The notes under the pieces: generated by a model
Database searches by the model: none
What the model saw: the letters and a program-made list of their open reading frames with translations, nothing else
What the model was told of the DNA's origin: nothing
Source: an uncultured Acidobacteriota bacterium
Lineage (GTDB): Bacteria > Acidobacteriota > JAQAZP01
Length of the DNA stretch: 64,000 bases
Assembly: GCA_963836075.1 (NCBI GenBank)
Contig: CAWIIB010000009.1
Span: forward strand, 3,330,442-3,394,441
Direction: 5' to 3'
Position numbers and translations under genes: made by a program
In this document: positions 34,367 through 40,059 of the stretch, in pieces
Layout: the number at the start of each line of letters is the position of its first letter
How positions within the stretch are numbered: position 1 is the stretch's first letter

Positions 34367-36127
34367 ATGTCGATCACGGGCAATGACAAACCAGGGAAGA
34401 TCGAGCACATGCTGGCCGACAGTGATCTCCCCTTCGCTCACCGCAAAATGATGCTCAAACAGCTGATCAAGCACAGCAGCGAGGAGACGGATTCCATACT
34501 GGAGTCGATCCTCAACGGTGGTGAGAACAACAAACTGGACAAGACCCTGGCCCGCAAGGTCAAGTCGTACAACGAGAAGCTCAAGGCGCTGGAGGAGGGC
34601 CCGGTGCGGCCGGGCACCTTTCTTGGCTCCCGCCCGCACAGTAGTGGTGCGGTGACCCGTGTGCAGGTGAGGCTGGAGGACGGCACGACGGTGTTTCCGC
34701 TGCTGCCCCGCCCCCGTCTGCTGCGGGAACTGCGGCGGGGGGACTCCGTGGTGCTGGACGGTCAGGCCCAGGCCGTCATCTCCCGTGAACCCGCCGCTGA
34801 GTGGTCGGGGGAGGTGGCGACCTACGAACGGCGGATCGGTCCGGAGCATGTGGAGATTTCCGTCCGCGGGGACGAGCGCCATGTCTTCGACGCCTCCCAC
34901 GGGGTCATCGATCTGCTGAACCGGGAGAGTGTGGAGCCGGGCCGCCGGTTGCTGATCTGCCAGCGGCGGAAGTTCGTCATGGGGGTCGTGCCCGAGGAGG
35001 AGGGGCGGGTCCACTACCGCTATCTCGACCGGATGGCGGTGCCCGATGTGGTGGCGGAGCGGGACCTGGGAGATCCCCCGGCCTACCTCGACGAACTGAT
35101 GAGTCATCTGCGGATGGAGATGACCAGGCCCGATCTGCGCCGCCGCTACGGTCTGCGCCGCTGCGCGATGAAGCTGCTGGCCGGGATCAGCGGTTCGGGC
35201 AAGAGCTACTCGCTGCTGGCCCTGTGGAATGCGATGTACCAGCTGATGGCCGAAGTGACCGGAGTGCAGGTGGAGGATCTGCCGTCCCGGGTGATGCGCT
35301 TTCGGCCGGCCCAGCTGCTCAGCCACTGGTTCGGGGACAGTGACAGGAATATCGACCGCTTTTTCGGTGAGGTGCACCGGCTGGCCGACGAAAAATTTGC
35401 CGGCCCCGGGGGCAAGGTCTATGAACTGCCGGTGCTGGTGATCCTCGAGGAAGTGGATGGGATGAGCCGTGCCCGGGGGGGTGACGACATCTATGACCGG
35501 ATCATGTCCACCCTGCTGGAACTGCTTGACCCCACACGCCAGGCGCTCAGCGACCGCATGATCATCTTGGTGGGCACCACCAACGTGCCGGAGCAGATCG
35601 ATCCGGCCTTCCTGCGCCGGATCGGGGGGACCATCGAAACCTTTGGCCATCTCAATCGGAGGAATTTCAGGGAGGTGCTGCGCAAGCGGCTGCAGCGGAT
35701 ACCCCTGGCTGCCCGGGACGGAATGGGCGATGACGATCTGCTGCAGGGGATGGTCAACGAACTGACCTCCTGGCTTTTCAGTTCCAACGGAGAGGACCAC
35801 GGCCAGGTGGAGATTTCTCTGGTGGGCTCCGCCGAGCCGCTGGTCCACCGCCGCAGGGACTTTCTCACCGCCGGCATGGTGGACCGGGCCGTACAGCAGG
35901 TGGCCGATCTGGCCTGCACGGAAGAGGATGCCGGCAGCGCCAACCCCGGCCTGACCCCGGCGATGCTGAAAAAGGCGCTGGACCGCCAGGTGCGGGCCAT
36001 TGTGGACCTGCTCAGCCCGGGGAATGTGGGCAACTATCTGCAGTTGCCCGATGGGGTGCGGGTCCAGGGCATCAGGGTCATCGAGCGGCCGGTGATCCAT
36101 TCTTTTGAGCTGGTGCGGGCGAGCTGA
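34367..36127 (+). CDS. Classical-clade AAA+ ATPase with a coiled-coil and OB N-domain (PAN/Mpa/ARC-like architecture)
   Basis: Coiled-coil KLDKTLARKVKSYNEKLKALEEGP is followed by VRPGTFLG...VQVRLEDGTTVFPLL...LRRGDSVVLDG (OB-like). A second OB-like segment follows. Walker A is GISGSGKS, Walker B VLVILEEVDG, SRH ILVGTTNVPEQIDPAFLRRIGG. Confidence 0.8.
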   Translation: MSITGNDKPGKIEHMLADSDLPFAHRKMMLKQLIKHSSEETDSILESILNGGENNKLDKTLARKVKSYNEKLKALEEGPVRPGTFLGSRPHSSGAVTRVQVRLEDGTTVFPLLPRPRLLRELRRGDSVVLDGQAQAVISREPAAEWSGEVATYERRIGPEHVEISVRGDERHVFDASHGVIDLLNRESVEPGRRLLICQRRKFVMGVVPEEEGRVHYRYLDRMAVPDVVAERDLGDPPAYLDELMSHLRMEMTRPDLRRRYGLRRCAMKLLAGISGSGKSYSLLALWNAMYQLMAEVTGVQVEDLPSRVMRFRPAQLLSHWFGDSDRNIDRFFGEVHRLADEKFAGPGGKVYELPVLVILEEVDGMSRARGGDDIYDRIMSTLLELLDPTRQALSDRMIILVGTTNVPEQIDPAFLRRIGGTIETFGHLNRRNFREVLRKRLQRIPLAARDGMGDDDLLQGMVNELTSWLFSSNGEDHGQVEISLVGSAEPLVHRRRDFLTAGMVDRAVQQVADLACTEEDAGSANPGLTPAMLKKALDRQVRAIVDLLSPGNVGNYLQLPDGVRVQGIRVIERPVIHSFELVRAS

Positions 36128-36173
36128 TCCGGAATCGCCGTCCGGACGGGGAAAGATCGAGGAGGAGAGGCAG

Positions 36174-36509
36174 ATGGCCGACGAACGGAGGAGACCGAAA
36201 AGAGAGGAGACCGGGCCAGGTCCCGGTGGCCTCGGTGATGTGTTTGCCGGACCCGAAACGGGCGGGGCGGTAACGGTTTGCCATGGACCGTACAGCGAGG
36301 ATCTGCCGGTGGGCAACATGAGTGTGGGTGAGGTCCGGCGCCGGTTCTCGGACCGCCTGGACATCGACCCCCAGAGCCAGGCGGTGATCGACGGCAACGA
36401 GGTGGACGACAGCACCGTGCTGCGCGGCGGCCAACTGCTGGCCTTTATCCGGCAGGCTGGTGAAAAGGGCGGGAGGAGACGGTCCCACGGGGGAGGATCG
36501 CCATGTTGA
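36174..36509 (+). CDS. Second ubiquitin-like (ThiS/MoaD-type beta-grasp) protein with an internal GG followed by an 11-aa tail
   Basis: RBS GGAGGAGAGG. VTVCHGPYSEDLPVGNMSVGEVRRRFSDRLDIDPQSQAVIDGNEVDDSTVLRGGQLLAFIRQAGEKGG-RRRSHGGGSPC. Overlaps the next gene by 7 nt. Confidence 0.6.
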   Translation: MADERRRPKREETGPGPGGLGDVFAGPETGGAVTVCHGPYSEDLPVGNMSVGEVRRRFSDRLDIDPQSQAVIDGNEVDDSTVLRGGQLLAFIRQAGEKGGRRRSHGGGSPC

Positions 36510-37453
36510 GCAAGCTGGCCGCAAGGCGGGCGGAGGCGCGGTCCGCTTCGCGCCGGCAGACGGTGCACCAGGTGACCATCAAGGGTGAGCTGGTCTCCAC
36601 GGCCACCCCGGAGGGGCAGCCGGTCTGCATGAAACTGAAGGACCTGCTGGGGCTGATCTCGACCCACGGGGATCGATCGCTGGAGACCGGAGGCCTGTTG
36701 CCCGACGGGGTCAAGCTGGTCCGGTCCCGGGGGCCGGTGACCGTCTGGACCTACCAGCGGCCACCCCAGGTGCACAACCTGAGGTGGATCGCCGCCGACT
36801 CTCCCGTGCCGTTCGGAAAGGGCAGCACCTACCGCTCGGTGCGTATCGCGCTGCCCTACCTGGTGGTGCTGGCCGTGTTTATCACCGGGAGGAACAACCG
36901 TCTGCAGCTGTCGCAATACAACGAGTGCTTTTTCCGCAACGAACCTCTGAAGAGTGTTGAGGACCAGCTGTTCTACCCGGCACTGCTCAACTGTTCGAAG
37001 TTCAACCCGCAGGAGGGGCACCCGCTTTCCTGGATCTGCACCGCAAATATGGACCTCAGGCGTCTGGGCCGGCTCCCGGACGAGAACGAACGGATGCGGG
37101 GCAGTATGAATGCTCTGCTGCACTGCCTGCTGGAAACCGGTTACAACCATTCCAGCGAACACCACGAGGAGACAAGCTGGTTCACCGAGTCCGCCACGGT
37201 GGACCCGCGGGTCGCCACCGTCGAGAGGTGGGAGCAGGCCACCGCCAAAGACAGTCTTTTCGTCCTTGACGTCCCCTGGCTCAAAACCGGCAGGAGCCTG
37301 GGGCAGGTGATCGAAAGGATATTCGACAATGCCGGCAGTTCCCGCGGACGGCTGGCCACTTCCAATGACCTGATGCGGCTGATGGCCAACAACAGCGAGC
37401 GGCTGCCGGCGAAGGAAGAAGCGCAGGGGGTATTTATCGATGAACTGTTCTGA
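36503..37453 (+). CDS. Candidate prokaryotic E2-like protein (assigned mainly by position in the Ubl-E2-JAB-E1 order)
   Basis: 316 aa and translationally coupled on both sides. Candidate active-site region LFYPALLNCSKFNPQEGHPLSWICTAN. No canonical HPN motif. Confidence 0.4.
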   Translation: MLSKLAARRAEARSASRRQTVHQVTIKGELVSTATPEGQPVCMKLKDLLGLISTHGDRSLETGGLLPDGVKLVRSRGPVTVWTYQRPPQVHNLRWIAADSPVPFGKGSTYRSVRIALPYLVVLAVFITGRNNRLQLSQYNECFFRNEPLKSVEDQLFYPALLNCSKFNPQEGHPLSWICTANMDLRRLGRLPDENERMRGSMNALLHCLLETGYNHSSEHHEETSWFTESATVDPRVATVERWEQATAKDSLFVLDVPWLKTGRSLGQVIERIFDNAGSSRGRLATSNDLMRLMANNSERLPAKEEAQGVFIDELF

Positions 37454-38348
37454 GGACAGACTGCTCACGCCGATCTACCTGCGGACGAGCGAGGAGATGC
37501 ACTGGCCGGAGGACACGGTGTTTTACATGCTCACCGGCAGCGGTCTCTTTCTCTGCCGCAACAACGAGCACTTCCGCAGCTGTGTTCCGGCCCGCGGCTG
37601 GCCCGGGGAACTGCCCGGTCAGGAAAAGTTCCTCGATCTGCACTATCCCCGGCTGCCCCGGCGGCTGCTGGAACGGGCGGTGGGCTTTTTCGAAGCGGTG
37701 GGGCGCAAACACGATGCGGAAGCGGCACTGCTCCTGGCCTGGGACAGCGAGCGCGAGGTTTACCGCCTGGTGATTCCCCGGCAGCGTTGTACCGTGTACC
37801 TCAACTGGCAGGGGGACACCTCGCCCCAGGGCGTGCACTACGACCTTCCGGAACGCGTGCCCGAGACCTGGATCATTGTTGGCGACATCCACAGCCACGT
37901 CGATTTTTCGGCATACTCCTCGGCCACCGACCAGCACGACGAGCACTACCGCACTGGTCTGCACATCGTGGTGGGCCGCATCTACGACGAGCCGCCCCAG
38001 TTTCATGTGGAAGCCACGGTGGACGGTATGCGCTTTCCCGTCCAGCCGGAGGATATTTTCGAGGGCTACGATTCCCGGAGAAGCGATTTCCCCGAGCAGT
38101 GGTTCGACTGGCTGAAGATCGAACTCGGTTCCGCTTTCACATACTCGGACAGCAGCAAATGGAGTTCCGGCACTGGTTCCTCCGGCTGCAGCGGCCATGG
38201 CCACACGGCCTGTTCACCGATGCCGGCCCCCCGGGGCGGTACCACCGGTTATTCGGTCGCTCCGCTGGAAACGTATCGCAGTTCGGGAAACGGCGGGAAA
38301 AAGAAGGGCGGTGGCCGCAACCGTGACGGCCGGGGGAAACGTCGATGA
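37440..38348 (+). CDS. JAB/MPN (JAMM) metalloprotease with a Gly/Lys/Arg-rich tail
   Basis: EAALLLAW... and an exact JAMM spacing, H-S-H-VDFSAYS-S-AT-D. Overlaps the upstream gene by 14 nt and the downstream gene by ATGA. Confidence 0.8.
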   Translation: MNCSEDRLLTPIYLRTSEEMHWPEDTVFYMLTGSGLFLCRNNEHFRSCVPARGWPGELPGQEKFLDLHYPRLPRRLLERAVGFFEAVGRKHDAEAALLLAWDSEREVYRLVIPRQRCTVYLNWQGDTSPQGVHYDLPERVPETWIIVGDIHSHVDFSAYSSATDQHDEHYRTGLHIVVGRIYDEPPQFHVEATVDGMRFPVQPEDIFEGYDSRRSDFPEQWFDWLKIELGSAFTYSDSSKWSSGTGSSGCSGHGHTACSPMPAPRGGTTGYSVAPLETYRSSGNGGKKKGGGRNRDGRGKRR

Positions 38349-39175
38349 GCGGGGTCGGGAGGGAACAGGTGGTTCTGATGCCCGCTCTGGCCGACCACAC
38401 GGCGGTCAAAATCATCGGTCTGGGCGGAGTGGGCGGCATCGTGGCCCGCTACCTGTCCATCTTCCTCGCCTCGCTGGACCGCGACCTGCGGCTGGTGCTC
38501 ATCGACGGCGACGAGTTCGAGCCGTCCAATGCCACACGGATGCTGTTCTCCGATCACGGCAACAAGGCCGCGGTCACTCGCGCCGAACTCCGGGAACGCT
38601 TTGCCGACACGTCCCTCATGCTGACTGCCGTGGAGCAGTATGTGAAGCCGGACAACATTCACCGCCTGATTCAGAATGATGACGTGGTCATCCTGGCCGT
38701 GGACAACCACGCCACGCGAAAGCTGGTCAGCGAGCACTGCCGGAGCCAGTTGAACGACGTGTGCCTGATCTCGGGGGGGAATGACGGCGTGGGCCCCGAC
38801 GGGTCGGGTTCCCGGCGGCGGGGCACATACGGCAACTGCCAGATTTATTTGCGCCGGGGCGGCCGGGATCTATGTCCCCCGATCACCCGGTATCATCCCG
38901 AGATCCGGGAACCGGCGGATCACAGCCCCGCCGAGGAGAACTGCACCGAACTGATCAAGTCGGTGCCGCAGATCCTGTTCGCTAACCTGGCCGCGGCATC
39001 GGCCATCCTCAACGCCTTCTGGCTCCATTGCTGCTCCGCGCTGCACTACAGCGAACTCAGCTTCGACATTGCCGATGGTCTGATGCGGCCCATGCCCCTG
39101 CCGGCCCCTCTCGTCATCGCGAGGAGCCCGAAGGGTGAAGCGGCGCTCTCTTCGGATGTCTTTCCGGTTCAATGA
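38345..39175 (+). CDS. ThiF-family E1-like protein (PRTRC/Bil-type)
   Basis: VKIIGLGGVGGIVARYL...LVLIDGDEFEPSNATRMLF...VILAVDNHATRKL. Confidence 0.8.
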   Translation: MSGVGREQVVLMPALADHTAVKIIGLGGVGGIVARYLSIFLASLDRDLRLVLIDGDEFEPSNATRMLFSDHGNKAAVTRAELRERFADTSLMLTAVEQYVKPDNIHRLIQNDDVVILAVDNHATRKLVSEHCRSQLNDVCLISGGNDGVGPDGSGSRRRGTYGNCQIYLRRGGRDLCPPITRYHPEIREPADHSPAEENCTELIKSVPQILFANLAAASAILNAFWLHCCSALHYSELSFDIADGLMRPMPLPAPLVIARSPKGEAALSSDVFPVQ

Positions 39176-39216
39176 GATTGCTTCGTCGCCGTCTTCGACG
39201 GCTCCTCGCAATGACA
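39176..39216. repeat. REP-like palindromic element ending in the 12-mer CTCGCAATGACA
   Basis: GATTGCTTCGTCGCCGTCTTCGACGGCTCCTCGCAATGACA lies directly after the operon stop. The same 12-mer occurs at 51806-51817 and inverted at 51763-51774, with a partial copy at 39272-39282. Confidence 0.6.
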
Positions 39217-39294
39217 GCGAGAGAACGAATGTTTCTTCCGCTGACTTCCCGTGGCCCCCGAGGGGCGGGGACTCGCAATGAGCTGCGCAGGGTG

Positions 39295-40059
39295 TCAGCC
39301 GTCGAGGAGGATACTTGAGCAGGTGAGCCCCGATTCGGCCTTGAGCAGCTCGGAGATGTCCACCGTCTTCACCTGGAAACCTGCCGCGCGGACTGCGGAG
39401 ATGGTCCGCCCGAACTCCCGGTGGAGGCAGACAAAGCGGCCGGCCCGGAGGGCGTTGGCCGCCTCGGCTTCGTCGTCATCCACTGGAATGACGGTGAAAC
39501 CGGCGAAGGGGCCGGGGTCGAAAAGGCCCTGGCGGGCCAGCAGGGTCTGGTCGTCCAGAGCGGAGACCGCCGACTTGAGGTGCAGGCAGCCTTTCATGGT
39601 CACCGGGACCACCGTGTAGCCGTGGGGCGACAGCAGGCGGGACAACTGGTCGATCCCGTCCTGGTTGGTGCGCGCGGAGAGGCCGACATAGAGGGTCCGG
39701 CCCACACGGAGCACGTCGCCGCCTTCCAGGGTGCCCGGCTCCACGATCCGTTCCAGCGGTCGGTAACCGGCCAGCACCGGCTCAATACCGGCCACCTCAC
39801 CGCGCCGGGACAGGACGCCCGGCCGGGCAAGCACGGCCAGTTCATCCACCACCACTGCCGTGTCCTCGATGAACGTGCAGTCGGGGTGCGCAATGTTGAC
39901 ATCGGTTTCCAGCACCTGGTACCCGCAATCCTCGAGCATCCGGCGGTAGCCGGCATGCTGGGCCCGTGCCAGTTCGAGGTTGATCGGCTCCCGTCGGCGG
40001 AAGCTCAGCTCGCAGCGGTTGATCCGGGGTGAGACCACGTGGGTCAGGGCAATATTCAT
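39295..40059 (-). CDS. Dimethylarginine dimethylaminohydrolase/amidinotransferase-family protein
   Basis: 254 aa with the DDAH-like pattern (FIEDTAVVVD, EGGDVLRVG, C-terminal GLTCSSIL with a catalytic Cys). Confidence 0.7.
   Translation of the reverse strand: MNIALTHVVSPRINRCELSFRRREPINLELARAQHAGYRRMLEDCGYQVLETDVNIAHPDCTFIEDTAVVVDELAVLARPGVLSRRGEVAGIEPVLAGYRPLERIVEPGTLEGGDVLRVGRTLYVGLSARTNQDGIDQLSRLLSPHGYTVVPVTMKGCLHLKSAVSALDDQTLLARQGLFDPGPFAGFTVIPVDDDEAEAANALRAGRFVCLHREFGRTISAVRAAGFQVKTVDISELLKAESGLTCSSILLDG

Follow-up and report, generated by a model that had tools for sequence, protein, structure and literature searches.

The window is a stretch of 64,000 nucleotides (nt) from the genome of an uncultured Acidobacteriota bacterium, and its positions 36174-39175 hold four adjoining genes, termed cassette 2. 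Their products are a ubiquitin-like protein (Ubl), an E2-like protein, a JAMM metallopeptidase (JAB), and an adenylating E1 enzyme. Cassette 2 is the 3′ half of an 11-gene operon with the order RING-like E3, E1a, E2, g271, Ubl1, JAB (g396), AAA+ ATPase, Ubl2, g316, JAB302, and E1b, in which the first six genes make up cassette 1. It probably encodes a ubiquitin-like conjugation module that is an obligate part of this larger operon. The four open reading frames (ORFs) were placed by an ORF listing and by direct reading, and they span the stretch as follows:

36174-36509, + strand: Ubl2, 111 amino acids (aa) from the ATG, the pro-form of a ubiquitin-like β-grasp protein
36468-36470, + strand: codon of Ubl2 Gly99, the last residue conserved in all homologues and the predicted C-terminus of the mature protein
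36503-37453, + strand: g316, 316 aa, an E2-like protein of an undescribed family
36989-37039, + strand: predicted active-site stretch of g316, from the Asn163 codon (36989-36991) to the Cys179 codon (37037-37039), NCSKFNPQEGHPLSWIC
37440-38348, + strand: JAB302, 302 aa, a JAMM/MPN+ metallopeptidase
38345-39175, + strand: E1b, 276 aa, a minimal single-domain ThiF/MoeB-type adenylating E1

The Ubl2 gene is read from the ATG at 36174. The Shine-Dalgarno sequence GAGGAGGAG lies 6 nt upstream of this codon, which makes a TTG at 36105 the less likely start. Direct reading of the junctions gives overlaps of 7 nt between Ubl2 and g316 (ATGTTGA), 14 nt between g316 and JAB302 (ATGAACTGTTCTGA), and 4 nt between JAB302 and E1b (ATGA). 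The overlaps fit the translational coupling that a first-pass annotation of the window had proposed for the four genes in this genome. However, many homologous loci have gaps of 5-250 nt between the cassette-2 genes, and coupling by overlap is therefore not a conserved feature.

All four ORFs are real genes, beyond chance, because they are conserved in approximately 70-100 loci each, drawn from genome bins and metagenomes, at median identities of 47-62%. E1b is the most conserved gene of the locus (62%), followed by Ubl2 (54%), g316 (50%), and JAB302 (47%). Antisense to AAA+, Ubl2, and g316, the minus strand carries a 1090-aa ORF at 34196-37468. Rather than a gene, this ORF is almost certainly a side effect of high GC content, since it lies opposite conserved genes and its product is rich in Pro, Gly, and Arg. 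The locus contains neither Rfam families nor tRNAs.

The 11-gene order is invariable. With g316 as bait and one genome per species, 49 loci were collected, all of them metagenome bins, and the order is identical in every one that is long enough to show it. A reciprocal search of metagenomes with the cassette-1 JAB as bait gave 79 loci, and AAA+, Ubl2, and g316 follow in the same order in 30 of the 30 that extend at least 4.5 kb downstream. A stand-alone cassette 2, lacking the AAA+ gene and cassette 1, or the reverse arrangement was found in none of approximately 75 testable loci. The first-pass annotation had described the placement of cassette 2 downstream of an AAA+ gene and another cassette as an unusual fusion; it is instead the fixed architecture of the family and not a local event. 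The 49 loci collected with g316 are labelled as Planctomycetota, Verrucomicrobiota, Thermodesulfobacteriota or "delta", Gemmatimonadota, Acidobacteriota, Eiseniibacteriota, Chromatiales, and Spirochaetales, and one homologous locus as Bifidobacteriaceae, labels that may include binning errors given that the loci are all metagenome bins or contigs.

The E2-like protein g316 consists of a small N-terminal domain (residues ~24-55), a UBC/RWD-like core (~65-215), and a conserved helical C-terminal part. Its AlphaFold2 model has a predicted local distance difference test score (pLDDT) of 82.8 and a predicted template modelling score (pTM) of 0.72. The family comprises 756 word-indexed homologues, and an exhaustive search of representatives returned 774 clusters, the best 150 of which were viewed. 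Residue conservation was counted over 236 sequences. The invariant residues include W95, P118, N163, and C179, with N163 kept in 236 of 236 sequences and C179, which lies in an SWIC motif, in 235. Further conserved elements are N215-x-SSEHHE222 and S225-W226, and the pattern LN-x(12-20)-WxC occurs in 86 of 86 loci. The protein does lack the HPN motif and does contain LLNCSKF and SWICTAN, the two sites proposed at first pass as sources of a catalytic cysteine. Only the second of these candidates held up: C164 of LLNC is kept in 178 sequences and replaced by V, I, or A in the other 58, while C142 is kept in 175 and is aliphatic elsewhere.

In the AlphaFold2 model, the segment from N163 to C179 follows a β-meander and precedes a long helix (194-211), with the two residues 16 positions apart. 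We infer that this segment corresponds to the HPN...Cys position of UBC proteins, such that C179 would be the catalytic cysteine and N163 the oxyanion asparagine. The N215-x-SSEHHE loop after the helix is a candidate "gate loop" in the same model. The best structural match of g316 is BubB, a catalytic bacterial E2, and a Foldseek search of the model against the PDB returned nothing. The β-meander and following helices of a UBC-like fold are both present. Thus, the fold that had been required of this gene product is consistent with the model at the UBC/RWD level but weak in score.

Profile searches do not place g316 in any described family. None of the Pfam, NCBIfam, and PADLOC models hits it, and 47 relatives gave only noise against Pfam and NCBIfam. 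The first-pass annotation had pointed to the Prok-E2 families as a check on its E2 assignment; however, the UQ_con and Prok-E2_A to Prok-E2_E profiles match none of 48 g316 family members at E ≤ 1. Searches of the PDB with the family profile and with the sequence also returned nothing. Homology of g316 to PRTRC_B (Prok-E2_D) was considered and rejected, as hhalign gave a probability of 0.2% with full-length alignments and 0.03% when restricted to the core. The motifs PY, NE, P.LN, C, and S.H are collinear in PRTRC_B and g316 in a non-significant alignment, which is a lead and not a result. The SSEHHE element was likewise rejected as the CEHH motif of type II BilB, whose published spacing C-x5-E-x-H-x4-H is absent.

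Ubl2 contains a β-grasp core with ββ-α-ββ-β topology at residues 33-92, where the AlphaFold2 model, built with 21 homologues, reaches a pLDDT of 86-93. The β-grasp fold is thus evident in the model, and the ends are disordered, namely the first 30 residues and everything past residue 98. The top structural matches are ThiS/MoaD-like proteins and TtuB. Ubl2 has no match in Pfam or NCBIfam at E ≤ 0.1, including ThiS, Prok_Ub, ubiquitin, and PRTRC_C, and hhalign gives 0.2% probability for its relation to PRTRC_C. No PDB entry scored significantly in a profile search. Residues 1-30 (36174-36263) carry a weakly conserved motif, approximately M-x-E-x2-R-P-x2-E-x3-G-P-x-G-x-G-x2-F. This disordered N-terminus could serve as a docking or threading handle for the adjoining ATPase.

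The C-terminus of Ubl2 in this genome reads ...FIRQAGEKGGRRRSHGGGSPC, as quoted in the first-pass annotation. It consists of an invariant A95-G-E-K-G99 end followed by a disposable 12-residue tail, GRRRSHGGGSPC, which is coded by the stretch that holds the ribosome-binding site of the g316 gene. Among homologues, ...(R/K)AGEKG is invariant and the residues downstream of it are unconserved. The stop codon directly follows the AGEKG glycine in approximately 6 of 50 loci, 1-4 residues lie beyond it in approximately 17, and 5 to approximately 45 residues in approximately 20. In 5 of the 50, the Ubl2 frame continues into g316, and a Ubl is fused to the N-terminus of 25 of 235 g316 family members in a wider set. 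Such unconserved tails and fusions bear out the earlier expectation that this Ubl needs C-terminal processing. The expected processing point, a Gly-Gly pair, was not upheld: since AGEKG is invariant and the residues after it are not, the predicted reactive residue is the single Gly99, and the second glycine belongs to the variable tail. By sequence, a conserved C-terminal glycine would be available for adenylation, either directly or through processing. JAB302 is predicted to cut after Gly99 and E1b to adenylate it, by analogy with BilC, which trims BilA by cutting after Gly97 (PMC10557695), and with BubCD, which cleaves the BubAB pro-protein after Gly229 (PMC11601596).

JAB302 matches Prok-JAB (PF14464) at 33 bits, above the cut-off of 25, and carries a complete JAMM/MPN+ motif. 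The putative catalytic residues are E94 and H151-S-H153-x7-S161-x2-D164. This motif, called textbook at first pass, is intact in 81 of 81 homologues, including those from loci with a tail-less Ubl2. Because the metal site is kept where there is no tail to remove, JAB302 must do more than processing, and its additional role is most likely deconjugation, as far as sequence comparison can indicate. Among NCBIfam models, JAB302 matches PRTRC_A (TIGR03735) alone, at 46 bits and an E-value of 4e-12, with a cut-off of 101.8 bits. Neither sequence nor profile searches turned up a match in the PDB.

The metallopeptidase core is preceded by a conserved N-terminal extension of approximately 90 aa and followed by a low-complexity tail of approximately 70 aa (235-302) that is rich in Gly and basic residues and ends GNGGKKKGGGRNRDGRGKRR. 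This ending had been listed at first pass as a feature of the gene. It is present, but the tail is not conserved: the basic, Gly-rich form occurs only in this genome, and homologues have tails of 0-143 aa with unrelated composition. On plasmids, JAB302 has its nearest relatives among proteins of approximately 125-357 aa carried by large Bacillales plasmids, including approximately 100 Bacillus cereus-group plasmids. On Lysinibacillus sphaericus pBsph (L053, NC_010381.1 41699-43629), the JAB relative is followed by a ThiF-family gene and then by dnaX and holB homologues. This JAB-E1 pairing differs from cassette 2 and is apparently uncharacterised.

E1b is a ThiF/MoeB-superfamily enzyme that matches ThiF (PF00899) at 58.7 bits, above the cut-off of 28.1, and has the GxGxxG motif, Arg finger, and Mg-binding Asp of the superfamily. 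Its motifs are G25-L-G-G-V-G-G31, DGDEFEPSNATR at residues 54-65 (D54-G-D-x-F-E-x-x-N-x-x-R65), and the Asp of VDNHATR. GLGGVGG and the 54-65 motif had both been singled out in the first-pass annotation, and 62 of 65 homologues keep the two together. Cys200, located just before the PQILF helix, is found in all 65 homologues that cover the position, and it aligns to a Cys of a genuine PRTRC ThiF protein that is 26% identical to E1b over its full length (BLASTP). The PRTRC_ThiF model (TIGR03736) also aligns full length, at 29.1 bits with a cut-off of 144.75. By sequence, the closest solved structures are E. coli ThiF, MccB, and TcdA. E1b contains no CxxC zinc pairs, rhodanese domain, second (inactive) adenylation domain, or separate Cys domain.

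Cassette 1 and the ATPase gene occupy the 5′ side of the operon:

29291-34362, + strand: cassette 1, six genes, the 5′ half of the operon
29291-29932, + strand: RING-like E3, matching Prok-RING_1 at 25.4 bits, just below the cut-off of 29.1
29944-31191, + strand: E1a, matching ThiF at 85 bits
31268-31945, + strand: cassette-1 E2, 225 aa, with FHPNI...LC147LG, assigned by motif
31950-32765, + strand: g271, a conserved 271-aa protein, present in every locus at a median identity of 34%
32779-33081, + strand: Ubl1, ending ...TPKTHLG*
33172-34362, + strand: g396, a 396-aa JAMM protein with a Cys-rich insert, assigned by motif
34340-36127, + strand: AAA595, an Mpa/ARC-like AAA+ ATPase between the cassettes

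The cassette-1 E2 carries the signature FHPNIACEAGGQVLC147LG (codons 31667-31708), with a family consensus of VWH-A/P-N-V...Q-x-L-C-L-G. Searches of Pfam (UQ_con), NCBIfam, and PDB sequences nevertheless gave no match for the protein or for the profile of its family, and g271 has no Pfam or NCBIfam match. g396 has a JAMM-like arrangement of E222...H293-G-H295...S324-x2-D327, which is split by a conserved insert with C307, C310, and C316. It matches no profile library, and its PDB profile search was empty. Because the PDB profile searches found nothing, the roles given to the cassette-1 E2 and JAB rest on motifs. g396 immediately precedes the AAA+ gene, a placement reminiscent of the Rpn11/Rpt arrangement. 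Ubl1 ends directly at ...THLG in approximately 29 of 40 loci and, unlike Ubl2, would mostly have no need of C-terminal processing. Duplication as the origin of the two cassettes was rejected, as an all-against-all profile comparison related only E1a and E1b to each other.

AAA595 consists of a coiled coil, an OB-type interdomain, and one AAA module. The NCBIfam model pup_AAA aligns over nearly its full length at 87 bits, with a cut-off of 504, and there is a Pfam AAA match together with a weak match to Prot_ATP_ID_OB_C. The closest solved structures are Mpa (5kwa, E-value 1.7e-16), ARC, and then Cdc48/p97. The C-terminus reads ...ELVRAS and lacks an HbYX-type penultimate Tyr, and the operon contains no protease gene and no 20S genes. 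In Planctomycete operons, an extra gene for a protein of approximately 415 aa lies between AAA+ and Ubl2 and overlaps the AAA+ stop codon by ATGA (L006:8294-9547 and L019:8294-9541; also L007, L010, L024, L026, L030, L036, and L047). From its sequence (VLWGRSGCGLD ... LLLQDLD), the product looks like a degenerate AAA-type module.

Taken together, cassette 2 is fairly likely to be a ubiquitin-like conjugation module that forms the 3′ half of an obligate 11-gene operon, in which both modifiers most likely belong to a single pathway whose outcome is that tagged proteins are unfolded or extracted at the cost of ATP. The folds, motifs, conservation, variable tails and fusions, and synteny behind this reading were computed, and its chemistry is drawn from the Bil and Bub systems. 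Ubl2 would be synthesised as a pro-protein, with some species encoding a Ubl-E2 fusion instead, and JAB302 would cut either form after Gly99. E1b, probably a homodimer like ThiF and MoeB, would then adenylate Gly99 and may form a thioester at Cys200. From there, Ubl2 would pass to Cys179 of g316, aided by Asn163 and perhaps by the SSEHHE loop, and g316 would transfer it to lysines of targets. Cys-thioester chemistry is likely because g316 Cys179 and E1b Cys200 are conserved. JAB302 can probably remove Ubl2 again, and the Mpa-like ATPase probably handles the conjugates. The two modifiers are placed in one pathway because the module is never found without the RING cascade and the Mpa-like ATPase. 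Ubl2 may serve as a substrate mark, as a mark or activator of components of the cassette-1 cascade, or as a handle for the ATPase. In the Pup system, a disordered part of the modifier engages Mpa, and residues 1-30 of Ubl2 would suit a similar handle role.

Several points weigh against this assignment. Sequence and profile methods tie g316 to no E2 family, and approximately half of the protein, comprising its N-terminal domain and conserved C-terminal part, is unexplained. The top structural matches of Ubl2 are ThiS/MoaD-like proteins, and enzymes of the ThiF/MoeB type, such as E1b, also serve sulfur-carrier pathways. The homologous loci are without exception metagenome bins or contigs, and support for the whole cassette-2 family comes from sequences and models.

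These points feed three other explanations. If there were no catalytic E2, E1b would transfer Ubl2 directly, as in the archaeal SAMP/UbaA system, and g316 would be a UEV/RWD-like adaptor, a substrate receptor, or the main target. Such a role suits a protein that has neither HPN nor a sequence link to E2 families, and the natural Ubl-g316 fusions fit a simple Ubl-docking protein as well. It is nevertheless unlikely, as g316 keeps one Cys (235 of 236) and one Asn (236 of 236) while its other Cys residues drift, which is the pattern expected of catalytic residues. In addition, the Cys179 segment between the β-meander and the long helix appears in the model to match the UBC active-site loop, and the best structural match, BubB, is a catalytic E2. 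Less probable again is a sulfur-carrier (thiocarboxylate) pathway, in which Ubl2 would be a ThiS/MoaD/QbsE-like carrier. The JAMM enzyme would trim this carrier, E1b would prepare it for sulfur loading by adenylation, and the thiocarboxylate would be used by g316. In the QbsD/QbsE and Mec+/CysO systems, a JAMM enzyme trims the tail of such a carrier. The kinship of E1b to ThiF, MccB, and TcdA and that of Ubl2 to ThiS/MoaD-like proteins and TtuB agree with such a pathway; however, Pfam and NCBIfam reveal no rhodanese domain, cysteine desulfurase, or biosynthetic enzyme among the 11 genes. Moreover, Ubl2 ends in ...EKG and not in GG, its partner g316 has a UBC/RWD-like fold, and the module is found only together with a RING/E2/Ubl cascade and an unfoldase.

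It is very improbable that cassette 2 is an independent Bil- or PRTRC-like system, possibly antiphage, that merely adjoins another system in a defence island. The Ubl-E2-JAB-E1 order does equal that of Bil (PMC10557695) and parallels the C...B-A-ThiF order of PRTRC, and the best or only full-length NCBIfam alignments of JAB302 and E1b are to PRTRC_A and PRTRC_ThiF. This explanation is contradicted by synteny, as neither half of the operon stands alone in the approximately 75 testable loci. There is also no PADLOC match to BilA, BilB, or BilC, the PRTRC models score below cut-off or not at all, and there is no ParB. Finally, no copies were found among IMG/VR viral contigs, and the neighbours in the window are housekeeping or regulatory genes.

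By sequence comparison, the conjugation module of cassette 2 is a variation on the bacterial Ubl-E2-JAB-E1 theme and a member of none of the Bil, PRTRC, and Bub systems. Type I Bub is its closest working analogue. The two share the order Ubl, E2, JAB, E1 and a compact adenylation E1 that is not eukaryote-like. Bub makes its Ubl as a precursor that a JAMM domain must cut behind a conserved Gly (PMC11601596), and the same is predicted for cassette 2, where part of the family has a true Ubl-E2 fusion. Among structural matches of g316, BubB ranks first, with no similarity detectable at the sequence level. BubB is a domain of 133 residues (230-362 of BubAB), whereas g316 is more than twice as large. 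Bub includes the serine protease DUF6527/BubE, and no protein of the cassette-2 operon matches DUF6527. In Bub, the JAB and E1 are fused as BubCD, whereas they are separate genes in all cassette-2 loci; the Ubl and E2 genes are separate in this window and fused in the minority of loci described above. Bub uses Cys-free chemistry with Tyr and Ser oxyesters, whereas cassette 2 keeps E1b Cys200 and g316 Cys179 and is embedded in an 11-gene operon.

PRTRC systems resemble cassette 2 in sub-order and gene sizes. A genuine PRTRC locus on a Sphingomonas plasmid (L054) has the order ParB-E-C-x-B-A-ThiF, with C (68 aa) followed after x by B (275), A (219), and ThiF (267), and the B, A, and ThiF genes overlap. 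Its PRTRC_C (L054:3562-3768) ends in ...RRAVGTKG*, similar to the invariant R-x-AGEKG of Ubl2. The full-length alignment of E1b to PRTRC ThiF, with the Cys residues aligned, and the sole NCBIfam match of JAB302 to PRTRC_A extend the likeness. The profile searches that had been proposed to secure a PRTRC assignment did not do so: PRTRC_A reaches 46 of the 101.8 bits required, PRTRC_ThiF reaches 29.1 of 144.75, and PRTRC_B and PRTRC_C give no hit. Matches to ParB, PRTRC_E, or PRTRC_F are lacking in all 11 operon genes and in the putative regulator described below. PRTRC systems belong to plasmids and conjugative elements, whereas cassette 2 is chromosomal and tied to the AAA+ gene and the RING cascade, and its Ubl2 has an extra disordered N-terminus and a tail.

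The Bil system shares the order Ubl-E2-DUB-E1, where DUB denotes the deubiquitinase, and has no E3 inside the four-gene unit (PMC10557695). Its JAMM DUB uncovers the Gly at the Ubl C-terminus and is also able to cleave conjugates (PMC10557695), functions that JAB302 may have by analogy. The first-pass annotation had called cassette 2 Bil-type, which is correct for gene order and does not extend to the proteins. BilD is a multidomain enzyme (IAD-AAD-CYS), whereas E1b is a single adenylation domain of 276 aa that PADLOC BilD matches at 21.6 bits over the Rossmann part only. PADLOC BilA, BilB, and BilC give no match to Ubl2, g316, or JAB302 at E ≤ 1, and g316 lacks the CEHH spacing of BilB (C138, E144, H146, and H151; PMC10557695). 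In this genome, cassette 2 also lies outside a defence island.

Two further systems bear on the rest of the operon. Caldiarchaeum-type operons, with a RING E3, E1, E2, Ub, and Rpn11-like JAB in Prok-RING_1 contexts, resemble cassette 1 and not cassette 2. Searchable accounts of them mention no obligate second set of Ubl, E2-like protein, JAB, and E1, and no Mpa-like ATPase. The Pup-Mpa system resembles the operon in its ATPase, as AAA595 is closest to Mpa and ARC and has the same succession of coiled coil, OB domain, and AAA module. Furthermore, Ubl2 has a disordered terminal stretch that, judging from the model, the ring could engage. The modifiers differ, being β-grasp Ubls activated by E1s rather than Pup ligated by PafA. 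The operon differs as well in having no 20S genes and an ATPase C-terminus without an HbYX-like motif.

The two cassettes differ in conservation. The cassette-1 genes have lower median identities (RING 30%, g271 34%, and E1a 37%) than the cassette-2 genes given above. Because cassette 2 evolves markedly slower, the sequences hint that cassette 1 tracks variable partners and cassette 2 serves a constant one. A more far-reaching proposal, which is possible but doubtful, is that the operon is a two-modifier proteostasis machine whose logic parallels the eukaryotic arrangement of NEDD8, ubiquitin, and proteasome ATPases. Its two Ubls, which are not paralogues, would each have a dedicated E1, E2, and JAMM enzyme, and one RING E3 and one Mpa/Rpt-like unfoldase would complete the set. 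Cassette 2 would then modify or activate the faster-evolving RING cascade, or supply a handle for the ATPase through the Ubl2 N-terminus, and the two JABs would have CSN5-like and Rpn11-like roles. If this were so, the operon would represent a new class of prokaryotic ubiquitin system, with g316 as a new E2 family.

Bacterial ubiquitin-like conjugation has been proven experimentally since about 2022, in CBASS Cap2, Bil, and Bub. To our knowledge, each new type of bacterial Ubl operon has revealed new chemistry. No description of the dual operon was found in the searchable full-text literature, a scope that lies outside the 2009-2012 work of Burroughs, Iyer, and Aravind, where an earlier mention is likeliest. 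The module adds an E2-like family that profile libraries do not recognise, a pro-Ubl whose AGEKG end has a single Gly and which is often joined to its E2, and the obligate union, within one operon, of two distinct Ubl cascades, a RING E3, and a proteasome-type ATPase. The operon would offer a compact, testable bacterial model for the cooperation of two modifiers with an unfoldase, and it bears on how the multi-tier ubiquitin-proteasome system of eukaryotes was assembled. Candidate biological roles are stress response, proteostasis, and defence.

The neighbours of the operon in the window include a sigma-54 two-component system and ABC-F ATPases, which are housekeeping or regulatory genes and not defence genes. 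Two features lie directly upstream:

27343-28611, − strand: divergent gene for a 422-aa helix-turn-helix (HTH) protein, with weak Pfam HTH_26 and HTH_3 matches and an N-terminal Cro/C1-type HTH
28612-29290, no strand assigned: divergent intergenic region of approximately 680 bp, AT-richer than its surroundings (GC 0.535 in 28001-30000 versus approximately 0.64 elsewhere)

From its sequence and position, the 422-aa protein is likely a dedicated regulator of the operon. A homologue occupies the same position in L001 and L005 and lies nearby in L030 and L052. Elsewhere, the divergent position is taken by at least three mutually unrelated gene families, some of them resembling HTH regulators. Terminator-like sites show no excess inside the 11-gene train. 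A scan of 28400-39500 for sigma-70-like sites found 5 where 1.9 were expected, of which 4 fall in 28612-29290 and the fifth just inside the first gene. The intergenic region thus probably holds the promoter or promoters of the operon.

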